DNA of 64,000 nt from a virus (lineage: Duplodnaviria > Caudoviricetes), in the IMG/VR virus record IMGVR_UViG_3300042940_001591; one strand, 5' to 3'. The position numbers and the translations under genes are program-made. Below, piece after piece: positions 15,322 to 63,634 of this stretch (the stretch's first letter is position 1; the number at the start of each line of letters is the position of its first letter). Below the pieces are notes generated by a model. The model was not told the DNA's origin. It saw nothing but the letters and a program-made list of their open reading frames with translations, and searched no databases.

Positions 15322-15396
15322 AGGGTAATGGACTAATGGCTAAGTCACTTGCTTTGGGAGCAAGGCATCATGGAGGTTCGAGTCCTCTTTACCCTA
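15322..15396 (+). tRNA. tRNA-Pro(TGG)
   Basis: Cloverleaf AGGGTAA/TTACCCT, loop TTTGGGA, T loop TTCGAGT. Confidence 0.85.
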
Positions 15397-15401
15397 CAAA
15401 C

Positions 15402-15473
15402 GCTGATTTAGCTCAGAGGTAGAGCACGAAGCTGTTAACTTCGGGGTCCAGATATCGTAATTCTGAATCAGCG
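15402..15473 (+). tRNA. tRNA-Asn(GTT), non-canonical T loop
   Basis: GCTGATT/AATCAGC, loop CTGTTAA; T arm CAGAT-ATCGTAA-TTCTG. Confidence 0.75.
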
Positions 15474-15479
15474 CAAAAT

Positions 15480-15551
15480 GCGTGTGTAGTTCAATTGGTA
15501 GAATTTCGGTCTCCAAAACCGAAGATGAAGGTTCGAGTCCTTACATGCGTG
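15480..15551 (+). tRNA. tRNA-Trp(CCA)
   Basis: Loop CTCCAAA, T loop TTCGAGT. Confidence 0.85.
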
Positions 15552-15558
15552 CAACAAT

Positions 15559-15638
15559 ACCCGAGTGGTGGAATGGTATACACAGCGGTCTTAGAAACCG
15601 TGTCGAAAGGCGTGTCGGTTCGAGTCCGACCTTGGGTA
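15559..15638 (+). tRNA. tRNA-Leu(TAG)
   Basis: ACCCGAG/CTTGGGT, loop CTTAGAA, variable arm. Confidence 0.9.
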
Positions 15639-15643
15639 CATAT

Positions 15644-15714
15644 TGTCCTTTAGTATAGTGGTAGTACAGATGGTTTTGGTCCATCTAGCTGTGGTTCGAG
15701 CCCACGAGGGACAA
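15644..15714 (+). tRNA. tRNA-Gln(TTG)
   Basis: TGTCCTT/AGGGACA, loop TTTTGGT. Confidence 0.9.
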
Positions 15715-15719
15715 CATAT

Positions 15720-15792
15720 TGCGGGGAGGAGGGTACCCGACCAGTCTCATAAGCTGTGTCTTTTCCGGTTTCGACTACCGGCCCCGCAACCA
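15720..15792 (+). tRNA. tRNA-Met(CAT)-like with shortened D arm, encoded CCA
   Basis: TGCGGGG/CCCCGCA-ACCA, loop CTCATAA, T arm CCGGT-TTCGACT-ACCGG; only 14 nt between acceptor and anticodon stems. Confidence 0.6.
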
Positions 15793-15942
15793 AAAAGATT
15801 TTAAAATAATTTGGAATATCTGAAATTATTTATTATCTTTGTTAAACAATGGTTGATTGGGATTTAACGGGGCTAGCGAATAGCGAGAAACGCCAATCAT
15901 AAAAACAGATGTCCACACCCCCATCTTCTGTTTTCCATAGTA

Positions 15943-16016
15943 GCCCGAATAGCTCAGCTGGCCAGAGCAACTGATTTGTAATCAGTAGGTCCTCAGTTCG
16001 AATCTGAGTTTGGGCT
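15943..16016 (+). tRNA. tRNA-Thr(TGT)
   Basis: Canonical cloverleaf, loop TTTGTAA. Confidence 0.9.
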
Positions 16017-16018
16017 CA

Positions 16019-16275
16019 ACAGGTGACGACGGTGGTGTAACCCCACTGTCTATGAATCCCAAAAGATCCGTCTGACTCGCGAGGTAGGGCGGTGAGGGTA
16101 GAGTTACTATAAGTCGGGAATAATTACCCCAATACGAAAATGTAACCGCAGACTATGTCTGTTATGATGTACATAGATGGTACGAAAAACCTGTAACTTT
16201 TTGAAACTAACTCAACGAGGACTTTGTCAACCAGAGCAGTGACTCGGATGGTGCAACTTAAGGTGAGTTAGAATC
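16019..16275 (+). ncRNA. unidentified structured RNA between tRNA-Thr and tRNA-Ser
   Basis: GC-richer, no ORF; helices ACAGGT/ACCTGT, GACGGTGG/CCACTGTC, CTAACTCA/TGAGTTAG. Confidence 0.4.
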
Positions 16276-16282
16276 AATTTTT

Positions 16283-16367
16283 AGAGAGTTGGCCGAGTGG
16301 TTGATGGCACCAGTCTTGAAAACTGGCATACTGAAAGGTATCTGGGGTTCGAATCCCTAACTCTCTG
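16283..16367 (+). tRNA. tRNA-Ser(TGA)
   Basis: AGAGAGT/ACTCTCT, loop CTTGAAA, long variable arm. Confidence 0.9.
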
Positions 16368-16543
16368 CAAGAATTAACTAAGATACTGTAAAACCAGTAG
16401 GTGGTGATTCCAGATTTATCTGTGAGCCATTTAAACCCTGATAGCAATGTTAATTTTTAATATATAATATTTTTTTTATATTAAGATATTGATTTCCAAC
16501 ATTTTATTCTGTATATTTGTCATATTATTAATATTTATAATAT

Positions 16544-16846
16544 ATGATAGATAAAATCACATTATCGTTAATGTTATTTTTTAACACATTAACATCATCT
16601 ATCGACCCAAGTCTTTCTGATGAAAGAAAGTCAGTCAATCAAATAAAAAAAGAGATTAAATCCCTTGAAAGAAAGATTGAATGGGTTGAAGTAACAGATG
16701 AGAATTACGCTAGCAGGGCCGTCAAAACCAAAGAAATCACGGACGAGATTACCAAATTGAATGGTAAAATTGTAAAGATTGAGAAGGTTGCAAAATTAAA
16801 AGAGAAATGGGCAACGGAAGATTCCTTGTCCAAATCAAAAAAATGA
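16544..16846 (+). CDS. exported coiled-coil protein
   Basis: Hydrophobic N-terminus, heptad-rich; TATTTATA at 16532-16539. Confidence 0.55.
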   Translation: MIDKITLSLMLFFNTLTSSIDPSLSDERKSVNQIKKEIKSLERKIEWVEVTDENYASRAVKTKEITDEITKLNGKIVKIEKVAKLKEKWATEDSLSKSKK

Positions 16847-17292
16847 AAAAAATTTTTTTAGTGCTAACGTTACTTTTGGGAGTGGAAGTCGTAGCAAATG
16901 GACAAGAGTGGTTTATAACCGCCACTCGAAAAGGCGGTCCATCAGACGGTTATATAACAGGTGGTTTTATGAAAAAAGGTTGGGGGTTTTATGCGGGACT
17001 TCCATACGGTGAAATAAAAACCCCAAATGGCGGAATTTCAATTCCCCCTGGTGTTAACACCAATACAGGAAATGTGTCCGATAACATGAAGTTTGGTGTT
17101 CTTAGACAATTAAAAGAAGACAAGGCGATTGTTGGATTTGGATTACAGCCAACACTTGATGGTAATAAACCAAATTTTCTTATAATGTACAATCCACTTA
17201 GGCCAAGTACTGTTATAAATTTATGGACAATTGGTAATTTAGTCGGTAGTGATTTTACATTAGGACTTGGATTATCGTATAAAGTAAAATAA
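16843..17292 (+). CDS. probable small outer-membrane beta-barrel protein
   Basis: Start moved to MKKIFL; signal ..ANG|Q; C-terminal LGLGLSYKVK. Confidence 0.55.
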   Translation: MKKIFLVLTLLLGVEVVANGQEWFITATRKGGPSDGYITGGFMKKGWGFYAGLPYGEIKTPNGGISIPPGVNTNTGNVSDNMKFGVLRQLKEDKAIVGFGLQPTLDGNKPNFLIMYNPLRPSTVINLWTIGNLVGSDFTLGLGLSYKVK

Positions 17293-17413
17293 AATAAAAT
17301 TTTAGTTAAGTTAATTCCCTGAACAAACTAAAAAAATTGTTCGGGGTTTTTTTATATCACATTTTTTGTTTATGTTTGAGTTATAGTTCTTTGATGTATT
17401 GGAAAAACAAAAT

Positions 17414-17498
17414 GCCTGAGTGATGAAATGGTATACATGACAGACTTAAAATCTGTTGAGCAGAAACGCTCGTGCGGGTTCAAGTCCCGCCTCAGGTA
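17414..17498 (+). tRNA. tRNA-Leu(TAA)
   Basis: GCCTGAG/CTCAGGT, loop CTTAAAA. Confidence 0.9.
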
Positions 17499-17615
17499 CA
17501 AATGTAATGACTCAGAAATGAGTGACGGAACGGACGCTACGTATGAAATGGAAACTTTTGATGCACGTACAAAGGTGCTGATTAGAAACAAACCGTACAG
17601 ACATTACATTAACTT

Positions 17616-17689
17616 GGTTCCGTAGCTCAGTTGGATAGAGCAACATCCTTCTAAGATGTGGGTCTTTGGTTCGAATCCAAACGGGATCA
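17616..17689 (+). tRNA. tRNA-Arg(TCT)
   Basis: Canonical cloverleaf, loop CTTCTAA. Confidence 0.9.
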
Positions 17690-17699
17690 CGTAAATTTT

Positions 17700-17773
17700 G
17701 GACTTGTAGCTCACTCGGTTAGAGCGGCACACTCATAATGTGAAGGTAGTAGGTTCGATTCCTACCTGGTCCA
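17700..17773 (+). tRNA. tRNA(CAT), probably Ile2 (lysidine type)
   Basis: GGACTTG/CTGGTCC-A, loop CTCATAA; resembles bacterial Ile2 tRNAs, lacks initiator GGG/CCC. Confidence 0.75.
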
Positions 17774-17785
17774 CTTTTAAGTTAT

Positions 17786-17963
17786 GGGTCTCCGATGGAA
17801 GTCCGCAAGAAAAATAGATGTTTTTCATCCATCAAAAAATTACCATAGAGACCGCTAAATCGAGTTAGTGAAAATCTACATTCTCATTGGTAATCATTCA
17901 TGACACCTACCGGTGGTTCCACACTAAGGTTATGTGAGGCTTCGGCTGATAAAAGGGTGTTAT
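17786..17963 (+). ncRNA. unidentified structured RNA, possible pseudoknot
   Basis: GGTCTC/GAGACC, GATGGA/TCCATC, crossing ATTACCA/TGGTAAT, TGACACC/GGTGTTA. Confidence 0.35.
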
Positions 17964-17965
17964 AT

Positions 17966-18116
17966 TGTAGTGTGACGAAATTGGCAAACGTACCCTCCTG
18001 TCTCGGGGGTGTGGACAAAGAAATAGATTGATAATATTAGGGGGTAGACCACCAGCTTGCAAGCGTCATGTTATCAGTTGAATCTCCACTTGGTGGTTCG
18101 AACCCATCCACTACAG
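17966..18116 (+). tRNA. tRNA-Asp(GTC) with 82-nt structured variable region
   Basis: TGTAGTG/CACTACA-G, anticodon stem CCCTC/GGGGG with loop CTGTCTC, T arm GGTGG-TTCGAAC-CCATC; insert 18010-18091. Confidence 0.7.
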
Positions 18117-18180
18117 CAAATTAAATTTTGTTTTTTGAAATTTATTATGTATATTTGTAAAACAATTAAAGATTAAAATT

Positions 18181-18402
18181 ATGAAATGTATTAAGTTAAT
18201 TAAAGCAAGTAAAGGTCATGAAATTGGTCAAGTTTTAAGAGTAGAAGATAACGAAGCGGATTTAAGAGTTAAAGGTGGTTATTGGTCATTTGCACCAAAA
18301 ACCGAATATAAACTTTACAAAAATCCAGACTATAAAACTAAGAAAACTGATGATAAAGTTTCTTCTAAAAAACAATTAAAGAAGAAAAAAACTTCTGAAT
18401 AA
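18181..18402 (+). CDS. small basic hypothetical protein
   Basis: Own promoter TATATTTG at 18150-18157. Confidence 0.55.
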   Translation: MKCIKLIKASKGHEIGQVLRVEDNEADLRVKGGYWSFAPKTEYKLYKNPDYKTKKTDDKVSSKKQLKKKKTSE

Positions 18403-18519
18403 AAAAAAATAAAAAATATTTGATGATTTATTTTGTTTTTTAAAATATTCATTGTATATTTGTAAAAGAAATCACAAAGGTGGTTTCGTAGTAAGAAAAA
18501 GTTCTTTGATTTAAAAATA

Positions 18520-19325
18520 TTGGCCGCCTATGGTCGATTAAAATAAACCATGAAAGTGGGATAAAGTGACAAACCCTTGGTTGGGGTAAGTTGCGGTTTC
18601 AGTAATGGAACTTGAGTAGGCAAGTGGAGTATCGTTGAACCTTAAGTACTGAGGGTAACACTTTAGGGAAAGTGGTTTGATGACTAAGCAATCCGAGTTG
18701 TTTGGTTGAGGTGGGGACACCAATAAGAATAATCCATAGAGTTATTGTGAGAAGTATCGTTATCCGACTTTACAATTGCGTGATTCAATATAATGGGAAT
18801 CTTAAAACCGAAAGGTATGGTGAAGTACGAGTGGTGTCGTTATCATCCTTTATTAAACTCTACCAAGGGTTTAGTTCTGAAGGGGTCCAAAAATATGGTA
18901 GCAGGGATGTTACAGAGAGTAGTTTAGTATCGAGTCGCTCAAAAGGTGGCTTGGCTAGGTGACGAACCACTACTTTCCAAATTCGGATAACTAAATTTTG
19001 TTAATTTTGGTTTAACAACTTAAAATCATACAAGAAGAAGTGTTCGTCAGTCGTTGTAGACAGGTGGCTACATAGTCGTGAGGGGTTCACGGCCACAAAG
19101 GGTCTCAAGCCCAATGTGATTTTTAAAAAAGTTCTCTAAACCCGCAAGGTTGAATCAGGGAGGCATCTTTGATGAGTAATGAGTATTAAAAGAGTATATA
19201 ACGACTCAAGGATTGGTTAATCTAATTGACCGCCGCTGATTGGTACTACTCAAAAGGTAGTGGAAAAGGGAAGAAACAAATAATGTCCCTAAGTCAATTA
19301 TTAAGACATGTATTCTCAGTGTTTT
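18520..19325 (+). ncRNA. large ornate ncRNA, GOLLD-like
   Basis: ~800 nt, GC-richer, no credible ORF; promoter TATATTTG 18455-18462 and terminator ~19390-19421; many helices; next to tRNA array as reported for GOLLD; 3' portion resembles GOLLD from memory only. Confidence 0.65.
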
Positions 19326-19455
19326 ATTTTCTTTGTTTAGTAAAACAAAGTGGTGGAATTGGAACGTTTTAAAACCGTTCGGCCCAAAAAAGATTAGTCA
19401 GATTTATTCTGACTTTTTTTTTGCTTTTAAATAAATTTTACTTATATTTGATATT

Positions 19456-20205
19456 ATGAGAATAGTTTGTATATCCGACACACATGCCTTACATAGAGGT
19501 ATGACCCACGAATTACCACAAGGTGATGTGTTAATACATGCGGGTGATTTATCAAATAGAGGTGGAGAAAGAGATGTGACAGAATTTATTCATTGGTTTC
19601 AAAACATAGAAGGGTTTGACTCTAAAATTTTTATTTCGGGTAATCACGATTTCTGTTTTGAGCGGGTTAATCAACCGCACCATAAAGGCGACTACGATTG
19701 GTTAAACAATCTAATGACTCCTGAAAATCTATCTCAATCCAATGTGACTTATTTGGAAGATAATTTTATGACTATTGAGTCACCTGAATTTTCAAGACCA
19801 ATTAAAATCTACGGAAGTCCTTGGCAACCAAATTTTTATGATTGGGCTTTTAACTTACCAAGATTTGGGGTTGAGTTACAAGAAAAGTGGAATATGATTT
19901 CAGAAGATACTGATGTATTAATAACACATGGACCACCAAATGGATACGGAGATTTAGTTAATAATTGGCGACAACCAAATACAAACGTAGGTTGTGAGTT
20001 GTTACGAAATAGAATAGAAGAAATAAATCCATTAGTAAGTGTATTTGGTCATATTCACGAAGGTTATGGTGTTGAGCTCGGTAATAAAACATTATTCGTA
20101 AATGCATCAACTTGTAACTCAAAATACGAACCAATAAATAAACCAATAATCATAGACTTACAAGAAGTTTATGGTGAAATAATTGCAACTCATGTCGAAA
20201 TATAA
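19456..20205 (+). CDS. calcineurin-like metallophosphoesterase
   Basis: SDTH, HAGD, GNHD, THGPP, GHIHE. Confidence 0.85.
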   Translation: MRIVCISDTHALHRGMTHELPQGDVLIHAGDLSNRGGERDVTEFIHWFQNIEGFDSKIFISGNHDFCFERVNQPHHKGDYDWLNNLMTPENLSQSNVTYLEDNFMTIESPEFSRPIKIYGSPWQPNFYDWAFNLPRFGVELQEKWNMISEDTDVLITHGPPNGYGDLVNNWRQPNTNVGCELLRNRIEEINPLVSVFGHIHEGYGVELGNKTLFVNASTCNSKYEPINKPIIIDLQEVYGEIIATHVEI

Positions 20206-20875
20206 TGGACCAATTAGTGTTGTCATTTCAACACGAAAAATAGATGATACGTATTTAAAACACGTTGAGAAAATGTTTTCACACCCTAAAACTCAAATAT
20301 TAATTTATGAGAATGATGGTGTGGATTCATTACCCAAAATTTATAATTTAGGATTACAAGATTCCGAAAATGATATTGTGGTGTTTATGCATGACGATCT
20401 TATTTTGGAAACCCCTAATATCACACCAAAAGTTATTAGATTATTTGAGGAGAATCCTGAATATGGCATAATAGGATTGGCCGGTACTAATAATTTAATG
20501 AGTGGAATGTGGTGGCAGGATAAAGAATCTATGTATGGTGTTGTTGGTCATGAACATCAAGGTAAAAGACATGTAAATCACTACTCAAAACAATCATTTG
20601 GTGACAAACCAAAAGAAGTGGTTATTGTTGATGGGTTATTTATTATGGTTCATAAAGATAGAATTAAACATAAGTTTAATGAAGAATTTACAGGGTTCCA
20701 TTTCTATGATTTACCGTTTTGTGTTGACAACCATTTAGATGGGATTAAAGTTGGGGTTACCACTAAAATAATGGTAACACATAAATCCATTGGTATGGTA
20801 AATAAACAATGGGAAAAAAATAAGTTGTTTTTTGAGGCATTATACGAAAAACACTTCCCTTTAAGGGTTAATTGA
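20183..20875 (+). CDS. GT2-like glycosyltransferase
   Basis: YN.G, VFMHDD, VDGLF, FHFYDL. Confidence 0.7.
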   Translation: MQLMSKYNGPISVVISTRKIDDTYLKHVEKMFSHPKTQILIYENDGVDSLPKIYNLGLQDSENDIVVFMHDDLILETPNITPKVIRLFEENPEYGIIGLAGTNNLMSGMWWQDKESMYGVVGHEHQGKRHVNHYSKQSFGDKPKEVVIVDGLFIMVHKDRIKHKFNEEFTGFHFYDLPFCVDNHLDGIKVGVTTKIMVTHKSIGMVNKQWEKNKLFFEALYEKHFPLRVN

Positions 20876-21217: not shown

Positions 21218-21297
21218 ATTATCACACATAATTAAATTTAAGGGTTAAAATTTGTTTTTTAACCCTTTCTCATCTACATTTGTATTCTATTTATTAC

Positions 21298-21694
21298 GGG
21301 GGTGCTTGGCATTGATTTCAGGTATCAGGGGTAAGTGGCACGTAGTCAGACTTCATCTATGACTTAAATCTATGGTGGAAAATTCTAGACGGCAACGTTT
21401 ATAACAACATGGAAATTGCAGGTTTACTTGCAACTTCTAACGTAGCAGTAGCCTAAGGCGAAACTACAATCGGGTCGACTGGCATGTAACCTAGGAACAG
21501 AAGCCTTCAAGGTGTAACACCACCCGAAGAGTGTTGGAGCAAATCTGACGGCTCTTGAAAATCCGGTTAGGAACAGTATTGATGGTTTCCTGTAATTAAC
21601 CTTCTATTTGTCTGTTATGAACTAATAGAATAAACGTGTAGTCATTTATTGTTGAACAGGAAAGACACGGGTTCGAGTCCCGTCACCTCCACCA
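21298..21694 (+). ncRNA. ssrA: tmRNA
   Basis: 5' GGGGGTG, 3' T arm ACGGG-TTCGAGT-CCCGT and CACCTCC-ACCA with G3:U70; tag frame 21391-21456 GNVYNNMEIAGLLATSNVAVA*. Confidence 0.92.
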
Positions 21695-55135: not shown

Positions 55136-55214
55136 TGAACCTTATGAAAACATTAACATTAGTATTTGGTATAATGAAACTAATGTTATATCTTTGTCTT
55201 CTAAATCAAATGAT

Positions 55215-55421
55215 ATGAAAAAAACTTATAACAGAATGTTCAATGTCGGAATGACATTGGTGTCCGTATGTTCCCTACTCCTATTCCTCGGTTTTTTGGT
55301 TGATGACGGGAGTATTCAACTTGATAGTAGTTATAATTGGATAGGTACCTTATGGACAATGGTATTCTTATTCGGTGTATTGTTAATATTAATTAGTGTT
55401 CCTAACACAGATTCAAAATAA
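55215..55421 (+). CDS. cassette 1: 68-aa two-TM protein
   Basis: Start moved to MKKTYN; promoter TATCTTTG 55189-55196. Confidence 0.6.
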   Translation: MKKTYNRMFNVGMTLVSVCSLLLFLGFLVDDGSIQLDSSYNWIGTLWTMVFLFGVLLILISVPNTDSK

Positions 55422-56198
55422 AAGATTAGTTCTCCCCCTCCCCCTAACCCTCATCGTTAATTCGGTGGGGGTTTTTTATTTCTCCCACTCCTCGTCCACG
55501 ACACGGTAACTTTTACAAGAAACCTTACTGGGTTATTTTGGAAGGAAACCTGATTTTTTTTCTGATCCTTGTTTTTGTTTACTGGGGTAATGCCAACGAG
55601 ATGAAAAAAAAATTCTCCGATTTCAGGAATTGGTTACTGGGTTGTTACCCCAGGAATGTTTTTCACGACATCCGGTAGATGACTCAACTGGAAAACAACC
55701 CAGTAAGGTTATTAATAAAATTTTCCGACGATCAGAAAAAGTTACCCTAGTAATGTTTTCGGATTTCCAGGGTTTTCTGGATTTTTGGGTCATTAAAAAA
55801 AGTTACCCCAGTAATAAAAAAAGTTTGTAAACAACAAAAAAAATTTTTATCTTTATATTCTAAAAAAAAAAATATTCATTTCGTCACCCCAGTAATATAG
55901 TTTTACTTTTCTCCGATTTTTTACTAATTCCAGTACAACCAAATTTTTTTTGAGTTTTTTTTATTTCAACACCCCAGTAATATTATTTTTACGAAGAAAA
56001 AAAAAATTTTTCCTGGTTTTCAAAAAAACCTTACTGGGGGATATAAAAAAATTTCAATGGATTTTTCAAATAACTTTACTGGGGTGTTACCCCAGGAATA
56101 TATTTCATGGGAACCTCACCTTCACAAAAGTTTAACAGATTTATTTTGGAATAAACTGGTAATAGTGTTATATTTGTATACACTAAAAACAAAATGAA

Positions 56199-56537
56199 AT
56201 GACTACTGAACAAACACTAATGGAGTTGGGTGTACGAGAGTTCGACCCAAATCAAACTTTGTATGTATTGACAAGAACACAAGGGGGTGTACCTTATATG
56301 TGTTGGGGTGTTAAAAAACTTATCCGAATCGGTCTTACCGATGATGGTTATGTTAAAGGTATTCTATTGAAAGTTAATGGTATGAAGTGGAAACAATTCG
56401 TATTGATTACTTTGAATGGTTTAGATTATTATGAAGTTCGATTGATAAATGATATGATGGTTGTGATTGAAACAATTGACAACGACATTATGTTTGATGA
56501 ATTGGTTGATGTTATCGATAAGTTGATTGAGAGTTAG
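56199..56537 (+). CDS. cassette 2: hypothetical protein
   Basis: Own promoter and terminator. Confidence 0.65.
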   Translation: MTTEQTLMELGVREFDPNQTLYVLTRTQGGVPYMCWGVKKLIRIGLTDDGYVKGILLKVNGMKWKQFVLITLNGLDYYEVRLINDMMVVIETIDNDIMFDELVDVIDKLIES

Positions 56538-56937
56538 GTTTATGTTTTCATAGGTTTTTTGGTTGAATCCCTCGGACTTTTAGTTCGGGGGATTTTTGTT
56601 TGTGGAAGAATCTCCGTCACACTGTTGGACAGGTATGACATATTACTGGGATATTGAAGATAGAGTCTGAGGAAATTTATAACGATCACCGGTATTACAT
56701 TACTGGGATATGTGAAGAAAACTACGAGTCGTGGGACCATCATGGACGTAAATCAATTACTGGGTAATACATCCCAGTAAAATCGTTTTCACCTCTTGAG
56801 GAATTCTTCATCTTCATTTCCCCAGTAATACATTATCCCCCGTTTACCGGTTAATAAATTTTTAGAAAGTTTTAACATTTTTATTTTGTATATAATGAAA
56901 TTAGTTTTATATTTGTGGACACTAAACACATAAACAA

Positions 56938-57573
56938 ATGGAAACATTAAAAAGAAAGGTTGGTCGACCTCGTAAAAACGAAACGACAACATTAAGAAAT
57001 TTCGAAAATGAAATCTTGATGACAAAAGAAAAAATCAAAGAATTGGAGAACAAGTATTATCAAAGTGAAACCTCTTTCGTTAGTAGAGTGGATAAAATCA
57101 AGGATAATATGTTCAACAATTATATGATGAGAAGAAAAATCTACGAAGAAGAAGTGGAAAGATTAACCAAAAAAATTGTTAAGAAAGACACTAAAAAATT
57201 CGTTGAAGGTCAAATCGTGGTTAGAAAACATTGGAACAATGAGAATACCTTTGTTCTAATTACCAAAGTGTATGACGGAAATACTGAAAAACATTATTAT
57301 TGGGATTGTGGTGGGTTTAAGTATTGTACTATCGGTGTAGGTGGGGTTGGTACAAAGTGGGGTAATCATTGGTTTAACGATGAAGAAAATAGAAATGTTG
57401 ATATTGTTTGTGATACACGAAACTTTGTAAAACTTTGTGAGAAGTACGGAATTAAGAAACCGAAGTTAAATAAATCCAATATGGAAATTATTTATGAAAA
57501 CATATTCGGTAAGAAGTTGAACGACACATTTAATTACAACGACCTACATAAGTTGGGTATAATAACTAAATAA
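56938..57573 (+). CDS. cassette 3a: AT-hook-like N-terminus, coiled coil
   Basis: KRKVGRPRK. Confidence 0.6.
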   Translation: METLKRKVGRPRKNETTTLRNFENEILMTKEKIKELENKYYQSETSFVSRVDKIKDNMFNNYMMRRKIYEEEVERLTKKIVKKDTKKFVEGQIVVRKHWNNENTFVLITKVYDGNTEKHYYWDCGGFKYCTIGVGGVGTKWGNHWFNDEENRNVDIVCDTRNFVKLCEKYGIKKPKLNKSNMEIIYENIFGKKLNDTFNYNDLHKLGIITK

Positions 57574-57574
57574 T

Positions 57575-57832
57575 ATGGAAAGATATAGAAGGTCGTATTA
57601 CTCGGACGAAAACTTTATTATATCAATTTACGTTAATAACACTCCTCTTTGGGAAAGTACAAGAATAACAATTAAAAATGGGGATAGAAAACGTGAGGTG
57701 TATAAAGATTTTAAACATACTCACAAAGTTATAACCGACATTTATTGTTGTTTAATTGAAAACAAGGTTAAGGGTAATACAATACGAGAGATTATAAAAG
57801 ACATTACAAATAAAATCATTTATAAAGATTAG
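57575..57832 (+). CDS. cassette 3b: hypothetical protein
   Basis: Follows 3a by 1 nt, then terminator. Confidence 0.55.
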   Translation: MERYRRSYYSDENFIISIYVNNTPLWESTRITIKNGDRKREVYKDFKHTHKVITDIYCCLIENKVKGNTIREIIKDITNKIIYKD

Positions 57833-58167
57833 TATTTGTGGTGTTAGTGAAAATTGGGGTATCAGAAATGATATCCCTTTTTTTATGTCCAAGAATTTCT
57901 ACATCATCTTCCCATCCGGATATTTTACTGGGTTATGCTTCGTGAAGTCTGAAGAAATCTCCGATGACCATCAGTATTAGATTACTGGGTAGAACATCCC
58001 AGTAAATGATTTTTTATTTTTACAGAAATTCTTCGTCTTCATTTTTCCCAGTAAAATATTTCCCTTCAGACCGGTTAATAAATTTTTAGAAAAGATTAAC
58101 AGATTTATTTTGTATATAATGGAATTAGTTTTATATTTGTGTATTCTTTAATCTTTAATGTTATGAT

Positions 58168-58836
58168 ATGAACACCTTCAACAATCACAAAGGAACGAAC
58201 AAGAGTACGGCCAGGAATATAATGGTCGAAGCAATCCACAACTCGGAAACAAAGAACTACAAAATCCTATCTTTGCCAGCTGAACATTTTGAAATTGAAA
58301 AAACAATTTACCAGGATGTATCCAGAAAGTATCGGTATGTTATGTGCGAACGAGATGAACTAACCTTCGACAAATTAAAACGAAATATCAAGAAACAAAA
58401 AATGAAGTATTTCGTTGGGAAAACTCCTTCACTTTATTTTGGTTCAATCGGGGATATTATATACAATGCAAACAAAGGGGAGTATAGCCATTTGATATTG
58501 GACTATTGTGGTCAAATTGGTACATTTCACCAGGAACTCCAATACATTTTTAGAAACGATATTATCGAGGTGGATGGTACTATATCCCTAACATTCAACA
58601 AACGAATTACACCAGGACCTTCTACAATTTTTTGTAATACTATCGATAAGTTAAACACTTATCAAATACCGAAAGGTCAAGACAATGGTAAAACTATGAG
58701 GGTTATCAAAACTTTTATTAATCGTGAGGGTGGTTACAAGTATGACATTGAGAACATTTTCGAATATACCGACAACAATAACGGAAGTAGTAAGGGAGCA
58801 GCGATGGTTTTGGTTATTGTAAGACGAATAAAATAG
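58168..58836 (+). CDS. cassette 4: SAM-dependent methyltransferase-like fold
   Basis: ILSLPA..VMCERD..GSIGD..LILDYCG. Confidence 0.45.
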   Translation: MNTFNNHKGTNKSTARNIMVEAIHNSETKNYKILSLPAEHFEIEKTIYQDVSRKYRYVMCERDELTFDKLKRNIKKQKMKYFVGKTPSLYFGSIGDIIYNANKGEYSHLILDYCGQIGTFHQELQYIFRNDIIEVDGTISLTFNKRITPGPSTIFCNTIDKLNTYQIPKGQDNGKTMRVIKTFINREGGYKYDIENIFEYTDNNNGSSKGAAMVLVIVRRIK

Positions 58837-59122
58837 TATTGTTCTTGAAAAACTGACCTCCGTTTCTACGGAGGTTTTTTTATGCCCAAGATTTCTTGTT
58901 CTCCCGTCGATTCAGATTTATTACTGGGGGACGTATTACCCAGTAATTGATTTCAGGAGGAACCACAGATTTTACATTATACTCATTCCCCAGTAATACA
59001 TTTACGGCGTCGGAACCATTAGATAAATTTCTTTAAATAAATTTGGTGGTTTAATATTATTGTTATATCTTTGTATCAACAAAAAGGAAATAGTATTTTA
59101 TTCACTTTAAAATGTAAATGTT

Positions 59123-59482
59123 ATGTTAATTAAACTGACAAATTCAAATTCAAAACGACCAGTGGTAATGAATCCACAAAATGTGCACTCAATGTATGAA
59201 ATCATTGACAAGAATACGGGCGAGCCTGTAACCAAAGTTCACTTCAACGAGAATAGTTATATCATTGTAACTGAACGACTTGAAACAATTTATAACATTC
59301 ATTGGGCAAATTCTAAACAAATGGATTTAGATTGGAATGTTCAACCGATTGATGAACAAATGGAAAACTCCTTCATACAACGACCAAGATACCCTCAACG
59401 TGTTCCTCGTAATGAGTATCGAGAAAACAATCGACAAAGAAATTATAATACGTATGATACCTATAATCAAAACACATATTAA
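59123..59482 (+). CDS. cassette 5a: FlbD-like small beta domain plus Arg/Asn/Gln-rich tail
   Basis: IKLT..VVMNPQNV..TKVHF..IVTERLETI. Confidence 0.45.
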   Translation: MLIKLTNSNSKRPVVMNPQNVHSMYEIIDKNTGEPVTKVHFNENSYIIVTERLETIYNIHWANSKQMDLDWNVQPIDEQMENSFIQRPRYPQRVPRNEYRENNRQRNYNTYDTYNQNTY

Positions 59483-59483
59483 G

Positions 59484-59630
59484 ATGAAAGATATGATAAA
59501 GACGATTATTGAGGTCTACAAGGAAGACAAAAGGGAATTTTGGGATGCAATTTTTAGTTTGATATTAATAATTGGAACATTTTACTTTATGTTTTGGTTT
59601 TTTATCCCTACATTTGCGTACGATATGTAA
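59484..59630 (+). CDS. cassette 5b: 48-aa single-TM protein
   Basis: Start moved to MKDMIK. Confidence 0.5.
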   Translation: MKDMIKTIIEVYKEDKREFWDAIFSLILIIGTFYFMFWFFIPTFAYDM

Positions 59631-59954
59631 AGACAATAGTTTTGTTTAATAGTGTGGTTAGTAAGTGAGCCCTCATCAGAAATGGTGGGGGTTTCTCTTT
59701 TTAGGTGTATTACCGAATCAGCGCAAACGCAACTGCCGTTACAACAATGCAGATGGGACAATTTTACTGGGATGAACGTATGACATTTCCCAGTAATGTC
59801 GTGTCGTCTGCTTGTAAAAAACTACATCTTCGTATTACCCCAGTAATAAAAGCAATGTAACAACACGGGAAAAATTCTTTCACAAAATTTTAACAAAAAA
59901 ACTTTTTATATAAAAATAATATTTGTATATTTGGGTACTAAACATTTAAACAAA

Positions 59955-60155
59955 ATGACTACACAAATCACAACACAAAAATTCAATTTCATTGGGAACA
60001 ATGAGGTTAAGGGTTGGTTTAAACTGACCGATGGTACAAAGACAAACTTTCACATCCAAGAAAATGGGGAAGTCAAACAATGGGGGGACTCAAACAATAA
60101 TGAGGTACATCCTGTCGTTTTAGGTTTATTGGAAATGTTATTTTCTAACGAATAA
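59955..60155 (+). CDS. cassette 6a: hypothetical protein
   Basis: ATG after AAACAAA. Confidence 0.55.
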   Translation: MTTQITTQKFNFIGNNEVKGWFKLTDGTKTNFHIQENGEVKQWGDSNNNEVHPVVLGLLEMLFSNE

Positions 60156-60166
60156 AACCTATAACA

Positions 60167-60376
60167 ATGTTTGAACTATTAAAAATCAGAAAACAATTAG
60201 TTGGTAAAAGAATTAGATTAATTCTAATGGATGATGACCCAAAGACAAACCCTATTCAACCTAACACAATGGGTACGATTGTATTCGTTGATGATATGGG
60301 TTACTATGGTGTGGATTGGGATAACGGAAGGAGTTTATCCGTAATTCCCGAAGAAGATAAGTTTGAAATAATGTAA
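60167..60376 (+). CDS. cassette 6b: DUF4314 family protein
   Basis: GKRIRLILMDDDP..GTIVFVDDMG..VDWDNGRSL..EDKF. Confidence 0.75.
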   Translation: MFELLKIRKQLVGKRIRLILMDDDPKTNPIQPNTMGTIVFVDDMGYYGVDWDNGRSLSVIPEEDKFEIM

Positions 60377-60732
60377 TAGACTCAACACAATTATTTTAGA
60401 AACCCTACGACTTTTAGTTGTGGGGTTTTTTGTTTTTAAGAAGTGTGGGTGGAACCGAGTCTCCAGGAAAACTATACTGGGGTATTACACAACAATGAAC
60501 CTTGAATCTGATCATCCAGGAAAAGTTTCCTGGGGTAAAAACGTATTACACCCCCAGTAATATCGAACAGGTAGATCTACAGATTTTTTTTCTTTACGTC
60601 CCCAGTATTGTTTTCCTGCATCAACACATCGATACATGTTTTTTCGTTTTCCCCAGTATTGTTTTCCTGAACGGGACAGATTTTATGTCAGAGAGTCCCC
60701 AGTAATTTATTTCTGGATCAAGGGGAAAAAAG

Positions 60733-60776
60733 TTATCCACAATTTGTCCACAAAAAAAAATTAAGAATGTGGATAA
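60733..60776. promoter_or_regulatory. cluster of three DnaA-box-like 9-mers
   Basis: TTATCCACA 60733-60741, TTGTCCACA 60744-60752, TGTGGATAA 60768-60776. Confidence 0.55.
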
Positions 60777-60853
60777 AAAAATATTAAATATATTTTGTTA
60801 TATTGGATAAAAGTTGTAATTTAGAGTATTGAAAAAATAAACAAAATAATGTT

Positions 60854-61384
60854 ATGAAAAAAAATCGTTTCAAAATCCTACAAGGTGAGTTTATCAAAAT
60901 GATGAACGAGGTTAAAAATCCTACATTTATGAATTTAGTTACACACACTATCCCAAAAATGAACAAAGGGGGTAGGGAAGGTTTGAACAAGTATTATGGA
61001 AAAGTTGTGAAGAAAAAATCGGTTAGAGTTTTAATCGGTGGTGAGTACGAACAACGAGTAAAGGGTAACGAAATTAAGGGTGGTGGTGAAGGTAATTTTC
61101 AAGTAAGTGAAAATAAAGTTGGTAACCATATCAACAATGTTATCCTTTACAACGAAAATACAAAAAAGTATTATCTTCAATACGAGTGGTTTATGGAAGT
61201 GAAACCAAAAGTTGAATTTGAATTTGAGGGAAACCCTATTGACCAAACTTTGTTTGATAGTTGGTTAGTGAAGTCCAACAATTACAAAAATCAACCGAGT
61301 GAAAGAAAGGTACAAACCTTATCGGTAAGTTTAGATAATGTTAAAGAAGTGTCATACAACGGAAACATTTACGAGTTCATTTAA
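60854..61384 (+). CDS. cassette 7: hypothetical protein
   Basis: Own promoter variant and terminator. Confidence 0.65.
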   Translation: MKKNRFKILQGEFIKMMNEVKNPTFMNLVTHTIPKMNKGGREGLNKYYGKVVKKKSVRVLIGGEYEQRVKGNEIKGGGEGNFQVSENKVGNHINNVILYNENTKKYYLQYEWFMEVKPKVEFEFEGNPIDQTLFDSWLVKSNNYKNQPSERKVQTLSVSLDNVKEVSYNGNIYEFI

Positions 61385-61667
61385 AGGTTAGTTCCCCTAC
61401 TAACCGAAGTCCACTCCGAAAGGGGTGGATTTTTTTTGTCCAAGAATTTCTCCATCTCCGTCCATCTGTTTTTATTACTGGGTAATACAAGAAGAACCTC
61501 ATCATCAGGAAGACAGAGTCGAAAAATTACTGGGGTATCATTGTCATACATCCCAGTAAATTATTTTACCTTCACGGGTATCCAAAATTCTTTGACAATA
61601 TTTTAACAAATTTATTTTTGATATAACCGAATTAGTTGTATATTTGTGTACACTAAAAAACATTAAA

Positions 61668-62228
61668 ATGAGAAAGTATGAATTAGTTGTCGAACACGAT
61701 AACGACCCAATGAATCCTCGTACCGAGTGGGATAACATTACTACAATGATTTGTTTTCACAAAAGGTACGATATTGGTGACAAAACTGACTACAAAAGTG
61801 TTGACTTTGATAGTTGGGATGAATTGAAGTCACAAATTGAAAGTGACCATAAAGTCCTTTTGATTAAACCTTTGTATATGTACGACCATAGTGGTATAAC
61901 TATATCCACAAGTCCGTTCAGTTGTCAATGGGATAGTGGACAAGTTGGTTGGGTTTTCATAAGTGAAAAACAATTGAACTTAATGTGTGGTAAAGAATTT
62001 GAAAGGGGTGAAGAAAAGTTAAGTTTGATTATGAATAGTGAAGTTAGAATTTATGATGAATACTTAACGGGTGAAGTTTACCAATACAAAGTTTACGAAA
62101 TTGAAACTTGTAATAAAGGTCACGAACACAAAACATTAGTTGAATGTTGTGGAAGTTATTATAGTGAGGACGATTGTTGGGATGAAGGTAAGTCCGTATT
62201 ACGACATTTAGAAGGAGTAGTTGTGTAG
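61668..62228 (+). CDS. cassette 8: conserved mobile-element hypothetical protein
   Basis: PLYMYDHSG..S..FSCQWDSGQVGW, motif recalled from ICE/phage uncharacterised proteins. Confidence 0.6.
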   Translation: MRKYELVVEHDNDPMNPRTEWDNITTMICFHKRYDIGDKTDYKSVDFDSWDELKSQIESDHKVLLIKPLYMYDHSGITISTSPFSCQWDSGQVGWVFISEKQLNLMCGKEFERGEEKLSLIMNSEVRIYDEYLTGEVYQYKVYEIETCNKGHEHKTLVECCGSYYSEDDCWDEGKSVLRHLEGVVV

Positions 62229-62567
62229 AAATACATAGGTTGGAAAGGTGAAGAAGGGTAGTCGAAAGACTATCCTTTTTTTTGTTCATACCTCAGGTCC
62301 TCGACCGGTTAGGTGTATTACTTTACTGGGGAGTTTATAGTGTGTGTTAGAATTTCCGACGCGACGGTTCGGACGTATTACTTTACTGGGGAGTTTACCC
62401 AGTATTAATTTCCAGTAGGTCCCCGAACTGGAATTCTTGTATTACCCAGTAATATATTTGGATTACCAGGGTCAGAAAAAAAGTAAAATAATTTTTCATA
62501 AATGTATTGTAAAACGGAATTTCTTTTTTATATTTGTATTGTCTACTAACCAATAGACCTACACACT

Positions 62568-62888
62568 ATGGACACTTTGTTCACTTCCCAAATCGAAAAA
62601 ACTCTAAATTCCAATGTGGAGTTTGAGTTCTCCTTGGACTTCCAAGGTCAAGTTGAATACATTGAGTCGGAGAACACCGACCAATTTTTGGAGTACGAAC
62701 TCGTACTTCTATTCCTTGTTGAAAAGGATTTGATTCCTATCAACGAGAGAACCGAAGGAGTTGTCACCATCGAGAATGGTGTTGTTGAAATTTTCTACAA
62801 GACTTGTACCCAAGTCGGTGAGGATTGGAATGATGATGTGTGGGATGAAAAAACTTCCGAACATTCAGTACAAGATTTGTTGGTGTAA
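62568..62888 (+). CDS. cassette 9: highly acidic protein
   Basis: About 25 D/E vs 5 K/R in 106 aa. Confidence 0.65.
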   Translation: MDTLFTSQIEKTLNSNVEFEFSLDFQGQVEYIESENTDQFLEYELVLLFLVEKDLIPINERTEGVVTIENGVVEIFYKTCTQVGEDWNDDVWDEKTSEHSVQDLLV

Positions 62889-63088
62889 TAAAACCACCTA
62901 CTTTAATAAGACCTCCGATTCTGTCGGGGGTTTTTTTATGTCCAAAATTTTTCTCGACCTGATCGTCCGGTAAGTTTACTGGGGTGTTTACCCAGTAATG
63001 TATTTGGATACGAGAGTCAGATTTAAAAAATAAATTTGGTGTATAACAATTATTGTTGTATATTTGTAGACACTAAAAAATAAAATGT

Positions 63089-63358
63089 ATGACACAAGAA
63101 GAAATTGAAATTGTAAAAAACACTATCTATTCAGTTGTTGAAGGACACATTGATAGTGAAATTAATTATGAGTGGGTTGGTAGTGATTTTACCGAAAGGA
63201 TAATGGATAACCTACCGATTGATAAAAAAATGTCTTTCGTTAGGATTGTCCAAAATAGTAGTAGTGATGTTCAATTTGATAACGAATTGTATGTGAAGTT
63301 CCTTAATCATATTACCGACTTTCTTTATAGTGGTTTGGAGTTTGAAACCAAAGAATAA
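63089..63358 (+). CDS. cassette 10: acidic protein
   Basis: D/E in excess; own promoter and terminator. Confidence 0.6.
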   Translation: MTQEEIEIVKNTIYSVVEGHIDSEINYEWVGSDFTERIMDNLPIDKKMSFVRIVQNSSSDVQFDNELYVKFLNHITDFLYSGLEFETKE

Positions 63359-63634
63359 AATTTTTTAGATTTTAACCCTCACAGAAATGTGGGGGTTTTT
63401 TATGTCCACAGATTTCCCGTCCCTGATCATCCCATAAAATTACTGGGGTGTATCCGTATATATCCGTGTTTATCTGTAAACGTATTCGATTCCCCAGTAA
63501 TATCAGTAGCTCTGATCACAGGTGGATCAGGAGAAAAAAATTAATTAATATTTCTTAAAAATAAATTTGGATTATATGCCAAATTGATTTATCTTTGTCA
63601 TACAATCATTTATTAAACCATAAAAATTAAACAG

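Follow-up and report, generated by a model that had tools for sequence, protein, structure and literature searches.

The 64,000-nt stretch of viral DNA analysed here (Duplodnaviria, Caudoviricetes; IMG/VR record IMGVR_UViG_3300042940_001591), hereafter called the window, carries at 18455-19421 a full-length, canonical GOLLD RNA gene, which is an added member of a described family and not a new kind of RNA. A GOLLD-like giant non-coding RNA had been proposed for this place in an earlier reading, and this identity is borne out by a full-length match to the Rfam model far above its gathering score and by the homology of the 5′ half to a GOLLD of solved structure. The structured element comprises a core of about 840 nt within a transcription unit of about 950 nt. 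The explanation that best accounts for the whole, and that we hold to be very probably right, is a canonical GOLLD gene with its own promoter and terminator, encoding a probable cage RNA of about 800 nt in a phage of Bacteroidota type. The GOLLD family, whose name contains the words "Lake-derived", reportedly goes back to Weinberg and colleagues in 2009. The features of the element are collected in Table 1.

Table 1. Features of the GOLLD gene and its flanks, in window coordinates.
Feature	Position	Strand	Description
Bacteroidota-type bipartite promoter (putative)	18432-18462	+	TTTG, 19-nt spacer, -7 box TATATTTG; exact consensus match
Variable 5′ leader hairpin	18471-18490	+	GAAAUCAC-AAAG-GUGGUUUC; conservation 0.15
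Conserved leader	18494-18520	+	Motif GUUCUUUGA and A/U-rich stretch; conservation 0.75-0.79
GOLLD 5′ domain, helices P1-P12 (own count)	18521-18914	+	Homology to env-38 and LR745206.1; covariation
Loop of 5′-domain hairpin 18683-18706	18692-18698	+	Pairs with 18981-18987 in J13/15
GOLLD 3′ domain	18915-19322	+	RF02032 covariance model match
Linker-closing pseudoknot, 5′ strand	18961-18967	+	Pairs with 19042-19048
Linker J13/15	18976-19041	+	Lowest core conservation; unpaired stretch of the Rfam model; equivalent to env-38 linker 497-538
L20 loop CUCAA	19104-19108	+	UC pairs with GA 19034-19035 in J13/15; published bridge B7
L21a loop CGCAA	19143-19147	+	Self-complementary GC; published bridge B8
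3′ tail past the Rfam model	19323-19395	+	Hairpin 19331-19350, GUGGUGGAAU motif, second hairpin, GGCCC
Intrinsic terminator	19396-19423	+	7-bp hairpin 19396-19414 and run of 9 T; terminator scan

Family identity and extent of the RNA

In a whole-window Rfam scan the 3′ domain matched GOLLD (RF02032) with 303.7 bits against a gathering score of 150 (E = 6e-86), spanning model positions 1-416 of 416 without truncation and scoring twice the gathering score; this was the check that the original prediction had proposed. A permissive Rfam scan of 18300-19500 returned only GOLLD at E ≤ 1, ROOL and every other family being absent. RF02032 models only the 3′ half of GOLLD (416 positions), and the 5′ domain, leader, tail, promoter and terminator lie outside the family definition.

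The GOLLD known as env-38, an 833-nt RNA from a marine metagenome, forms by cryo-EM an RNA-only cage of 14 subunits (PDB 9MEE), in which the 3′ region (env-38 421-833) is universally conserved among GOLLD RNAs, the 5′ region (1-420) is less so, and the linker 497-538 is disordered (Kretsch et al., 2025; PMC12286853). Compared by eye with the printed sequence, in which our own residue counts drift by 5-11 from the numbering of the paper, so that env-38 residue numbers are left off the 5′ loop, the 5′ half of the window RNA is homologous block by block to the env-38 5′ domain: the printed construct starts with ATGGCCGC, equivalent to window position 18521, and continues in the same block order. 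The same region is matched by LR745206.1, a 635-kb uncultured phage, at 71.6% identity over window 18541-18746, and this phage has its own GOLLD match (287 bits) about 420 nt downstream of the 5′ match, beside tRNAs. Two conserved 5′-domain blocks used as probes each matched more than 100 IMG/VR contigs, a number to be read as a lower bound, and nhmmer profiles of both halves lay joined on the same strand in 114 loci; a 27-mer specific to env-38 matched no IMG/VR contig. There were 104 copies of full length with flanks, and removal of near-duplicates left 61 non-redundant relatives, whose identity to the window ranges from 55% to 94% (median 64%). From the homology of the 5′ half to LR745206.1, the joined loci and env-38, it therefore follows that the gene has the canonical GOLLD form. 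The alternative of a new ornate RNA, which the original prediction had kept beside GOLLD, is excluded by the homology of both halves to known GOLLD. Column conservation over the 61 relatives is high across 18494-19330 and falls after 19334, with a separate island kept at 18454-18473 and an unconserved insertion at 18474-18493.

In its predicted structure the window RNA is close to the canonical env-38 form. Both have the two-domain layout, the length, the 5′ homology from the first base of the construct, an L11a-type GAAA loop, the UCAAAAG loop of P14, the linker-closing pseudoknot, the complementarity of L20 with J13/15, the CGCAA loop L21a, P21b and a tRNA-Met nearby; they differ in the kept leader and 3′ tail, which fall outside the solved construct, and in origin (freshwater against marine). 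With RF02032 the window also shares the phage setting beside tRNA genes. As given in a review (PMC12990946), the GOLLD of Streptococcus agalactiae is a 700-nt RNA that forms a 12-mer (PDB 9L0R; Wang et al., 2025) and has the family and the conserved 3′ domain in common with the window RNA, its L15 × L20′ kissing contact being the equivalent of L20 × J13/15 in the window; it is described there as being without P9, P11a-c, P21b and part of P7 and P10, whereas counterparts of P11a-c and P21b are present in the window RNA. ROOL (of the RF03087 type, with 8-mer and 6-mer cages) resembles GOLLD in being a large RNA of phages or prophages, in its closeness to tRNA islands and in building a cage of RNA only, with a disordered internal linker, but its sequence and fold are unrelated to those of the window RNA.

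The region had also been said to hold no credible ORF, and the comparison agrees. The longest ORF, of 86 aa with a TTG start (18702-18962), is not conserved, as in 42 of 60 relatives the homologous stretch is longer or shorter by a number of nucleotides that three does not divide, and the differences from the window are spread evenly over the codon positions (1423/1394/1376).

Covarying structure and cage contacts

RNAalifold on the 61 copies gave about 35 helices, paired in 84-100% of the copies and most of them in at least 95%, with double (compensatory) changes in all but one minor 3-bp helix. Since the helices covary, an Rfam score due to base composition alone is excluded. The 5′ half contains 19 of them, which show 89-100% pairing and 1-9 double-change pairs per helix; their order putatively fits the published P1-P12 numbering by our own count, and the GAAA loop at 18810-18813 stands where the published L11a does. 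Those who work on the cage may find a use for these 61 diverse relatives of full length, as covariation runs through their whole 5′ domain and the published R-scape table for GOLLD is one of the 3′ domain only (PMC12286853). Folded as a single sequence, the RNA beats all 20 shuffles with z = -2.73, which is a modest signal by itself.

Five pairings had been named in the original prediction, and four of them hold in the 61 relatives, one only in a 7-bp core. AGUAGU (18918-18923) with ACUACU (18969-18974) is 100% paired and belongs to the first Rfam helix, P13, the hairpin TACTAC-TCAAAAG-GTAGTG (19244-19250/19256-19262) is 100% paired with double changes in four pairs, and AACC-CGCAA-GGTT (19139-19142/19148-19151) proved to be the published L21a hairpin. 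The pairing of ATCCGAGTT with AATTCGGAT survives in its core, 18692-18698 with 18981-18987, where it is the contact of a hairpin loop with the linker and not the plain long-range helix that had been described. CTATGG (18528) with CCATAG (18734) fails, being only 87% paired with no double changes; the two arms take part in other pairings, 100% paired and covarying, namely 18526-18531 with 18616-18621 and 18733-18737 with 18624-18628. A further pairing offered by RNAalifold, leader UCUUUG (18503-18508) with CAAGGA (19207-19212), is 95% paired with one covarying pair only and is not claimed.

The linker J13/15 reaches the conservation minimum of the core (0.54-0.63 at 18994-19033), and no tRNA is present inside it. 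The pseudoknot that closes it is formed by 7 pairs, which are paired in 60-61 of the 61 copies with double changes in five of the pairs; its counterpart in the R-scape table of Kretsch et al. (PMC12286853) is env-38 467-471/555-559. Between L20 and the linker, position 19105 is paired with 19035 in 100% of the relatives (U-A 11, G-C 24, C-G 26), as is 19106 with 19034 (C-G 59, A-U 2), and L20 × J13/15 is an intermolecular kissing contact in the published cage (PMC12286853). The L21a loop reads CGCAA in 44 relatives, GUCGA in 11, CAUAA in 3 and CGGCA in 3, and by our own reading the first three of these, together 58 of the 61, contain a self-complementary dinucleotide; the published covariation of L21a is an exchange of GC and CG at the symmetric contact B8 (PMC12286853). 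The conserved cage contacts support, short of proof, an env-38-like multimer. We consider it likely that the window RNA would form one, in a copy number that may differ from 14, relatives being 10-, 12- or 14-mers depending on the helices that they carry (PMC12990946). By homology with env-38, the RNA would most likely self-assemble, with no need of protein, into a closed cage of identical subunits whose linkers turn inward, and the stable product of about 800 nt (roughly 18521-19322) would consist of a 5′ cap domain, the P13/P14 hairpin, the pseudoknot-closed linker and a 3′ ring domain.

The contact between the 5′-domain loop and the linker involves the loop and closing bases of its hairpin, and the partner segment starts six bases after P13. 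Its 7 bp are 97% paired in the 61 relatives, a value that drops to 31-46% if the partner is shifted by 1-4 columns, and when partners were shuffled among sequences the observed pairing was attained in 0 of 2000 trials. Five complementary states are found (CCGA/UCGG, GUGG/CCAC, GUAG/CUAC, GCAG/CUGC and GUGA/UCAC), with at least seven switches on a tree made from the remainder of the molecule. This contact is absent from the published covariation table, limited to the 3′ domain, and from the text of the cryo-EM paper, in which the covariation-predicted kissing contact that is named, L20 × J13/15, lies at another site (PMC12286853). The equivalent hairpin loop of env-38 is UGACA, for which no complement was seen by eye just after P13, unlike in the window clade, where this loop covaries with J13/15. 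The review speaks of an "additional intramolecular kissing loop" from the S. agalactiae 5′ domain, its site being unnamed there (PMC12990946), and because this could be the same contact, the one described here cannot be called new. It is conceivable, if rather doubtful, that in the env-38-like clade common in freshwater phages the helix between this loop (probably L8) and J13/15 is an undescribed bridge, either tying the cap to the inward linker or confined to the primary transcript. Such a bridge would lie within one chain or between chains, and the pairing may act only in the primary transcript, whose kept leader and tail the solved construct lacks. The contact, too, may be useful for work on the cage, being open to direct comparison with the coordinates of 9MEE.

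Transcription signals and RNA libraries

The gene appears to have a host-type promoter of its own, for which the start site is placed by the motif; a -7 box of the form TAnnTTTG is described as a conserved element for both Flavobacterium and Bacteroides (PMC7641319). The window has 23 sites with the bipartite motif TTTG-N17-23-TAnnTTTG against 6.5 ± 2.6 expected, a number attained by no shuffle, and this enrichment fits the Bacteroidota-phage setting that had been suggested for the DNA. Of the 61 relatives, 31 have a TAnnTTTG box no more than 100 nt before the core, against 4.1 after shuffling, about half of the relatives being without one inside that distance; after the box there often come GTAAAAGAAA, then a variable hairpin and a conserved GTTCTTTGA. 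A sigma-70-like promoter inside the RNA (TTGATT ... TATGGT) was dropped, the scan having found no promoter-like excess over shuffles.

Between the promoter and the core, the leader hairpin is a non-conserved insertion outside the env-38 construct, and the relatives either have other sequences there that again form a hairpin (by eye) or are devoid of the segment. The GUUCUUUGA motif that follows recurs in nearly all 61 relatives and precedes the start of the env-38 construct; this leader, outside both the solved construct and the RNA contigs, may be a processing signal. At the other end, the 3′ tail is kept in the subgroup of the window only and likewise falls outside the env-38 construct, its first hairpin being CUUUGUUU-AGUA-AAACAAAG and its second variable. 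The tail repeats the leader heptamer UUCUUUG (18500-18506). A strict hairpin-plus-T-run test at 11-120 nt past the 3′ domain is passed by 33 of the 61 relatives, and in about 10-12 of the others a tRNA gene follows GOLLD directly (by eye). The motif match and the scanned terminator agree with the earlier claim that the RNA has both signals of its own, and transcription would start at the host-type promoter and end at the intrinsic terminator.

Sampled words of the element were present at 39-49% in 17 RNA runs from about 16 freshwater, lake and river studies, and 18521-19356 is covered by contigs from four of these studies, with an identity of at least 90%. One contig of 797 nt (run X4) spans 18540-19298, and its further letters (GCCGCC..., ...CUCAGCC) extend to the equivalents of about 18524 and 19321; another of 622 nt (run X1) spans 18718-19298, and a third of 122 nt (run X5) extends to 19356. 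The call of the original prediction for a full-length transcript is answered at the level of contigs (up to 797 nt), which fix neither the ends of the RNA nor its strand or level; an RNA library may contain DNA, and the summed word depths (up to 5.7e5 in run X5) are not readable as an expression level. In the four RNA runs, 17855-18520 and 19409-20600 were without contigs bar traces, which is uninformative, as the flanks of the relatives may differ. Contigs of several studies start near 18521 and mostly end near 19298-19322, limits that coincide with the env-38 construct and with the end of the Rfam model and are at most a weak hint of mature ends. Because contigs cannot fix ends, trimming of leader and tail stays a matter of inference, for which we see the balance as even.

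Genomic neighbourhood and possible role

Ten tRNA genes (15322-17774) lie upstream of the element and a tmRNA gene (21298-21694) lies downstream, with a metallophosphoesterase and then a glycosyltransferase in between. These two genes (19456-20875) encode a calcineurin-like metallophosphoesterase of 249 aa and an overlapping family-2-like glycosyltransferase of 230 aa. The tmRNA scores 78 bits, with the tag ATSNVAVA according to ARAGORN, and is preceded by a promoter match, TTTGTTTTTT...TACATTTG (21251-21694 region), of the same class as those at 18432 (GOLLD) and 18127 (ORF 18181). Among the relatives, tRNA or tmRNA genes were found in the fetched flanks of 31 of 58 and in none of the other 27, many of whose loci are short, and in at least seven relatives (loci L004, L034, L036, L111, L122, L141 and L151) GOLLD and a tmRNA are a few kb apart at most. 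The relatives are IMG/VR viral contigs, and GOLLD occurs in very different phages. The window belongs to a large freshwater phage that probably infects Bacteroidota. The published GOLLD alignment already includes a full-length match on a Flavobacteriia MAG contig and partial ones in Flavobacterium and Bacteroides, as well as matches in Caulobacter, Vibrio and Mycobacterium phages, and the host range seen here is therefore not new; a search of the literature on GOLLD in freshwater found nothing relevant. With a host-type promoter and terminator, a conserved GOLLD-to-tmRNA neighbourhood and relatives in lake and river RNA libraries, Flavobacterium phages may offer a tractable system in which to study what GOLLD does.

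Two other readings of the region itself have to be weighed against a canonical GOLLD gene. Since the Rfam model covers the 3′ half only, the 5′ half could in principle be unrelated, and the RNA would then be a new ornate family, or a relative of ROOL, with a superficial likeness to GOLLD; we give this next to no credence, because the 5′ half aligns with the env-38 5′ domain and with loci that have their own GOLLD matches, and the Rfam scan speaks against ROOL. The region could also be a leader or precursor of its neighbours, either as read-through of the tRNA array or as the 5′ UTR of the phosphoesterase gene at 19456, and the relatives in which GOLLD runs into a tRNA with no terminator between (by eye) do point to co-transcription within the family. 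In the window, however, the terminator and a separate promoter match of the phosphoesterase gene (19420-19450) precede the next ORF, the element has its own promoter match, and the 797-nt RNA contig matches the core alone, so that this reading is very improbable.

As to what a canonical GOLLD gene does for its phage, we tentatively favour, at somewhat less than even confidence, a part in how the phage takes over translation, for instance by keeping or protecting tRNAs or components of the ribosome. This role is suggested by the neighbourhood of the gene, an RNA island of ten tRNAs, a tRNA-like RNA and a tmRNA, and the 27 of 58 relatives with no tRNA in their fetched flanks speak against it. 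Arrays of tRNA genes in other phages have been linked to the countering of tRNA-cleaving defences, and GOLLD might be a decoy or shield against host defence, an abundant and stable RNA that absorbs or blocks host nucleases or RNA-sensing defence proteins, for example anticodon nucleases directed at the tRNAs of the phage. The phage tRNA array adjoining GOLLD, the presence of the RNA in the libraries of many freshwater studies and the spread of GOLLD over very different phages are in keeping with a decoy, yet no defence or counter-defence gene was identified alongside, the neighbours being the metallophosphoesterase and the glycosyltransferase, and a closed cage with conserved inter-subunit contacts is not obviously needed for such a purpose. 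We regard a decoy as improbable, and a role in translation is preferred.

Some further observations concern the neighbourhood of the relatives and the rest of the window. The LR745206.1 locus (L001:2384-4107) has the same type of 5′ domain; a tRNA-Met gene lies upstream of its GOLLD, which passes into tRNA genes downstream without an intervening terminator. Five loci (L121, L134, L177, L185 and L207) have GOLLD among 23-26 arrayed tRNA genes, which flank it on either side. In another locus, a tRNA with anticodon CTA (L154:1081-1153; tRNA-Pyl of amber suppressor type according to ARAGORN) and a tRNA-like gene for which a 4-base anticodon, aaca, was called (L154:1802-1896) lie a few kb from GOLLD. 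Of the 23 bipartite promoter matches in the window, 10 are gathered in its last 9 kb (55165-63597), all on the plus strand and many in the wording TTTGTATATAATG / TTATATTTG.
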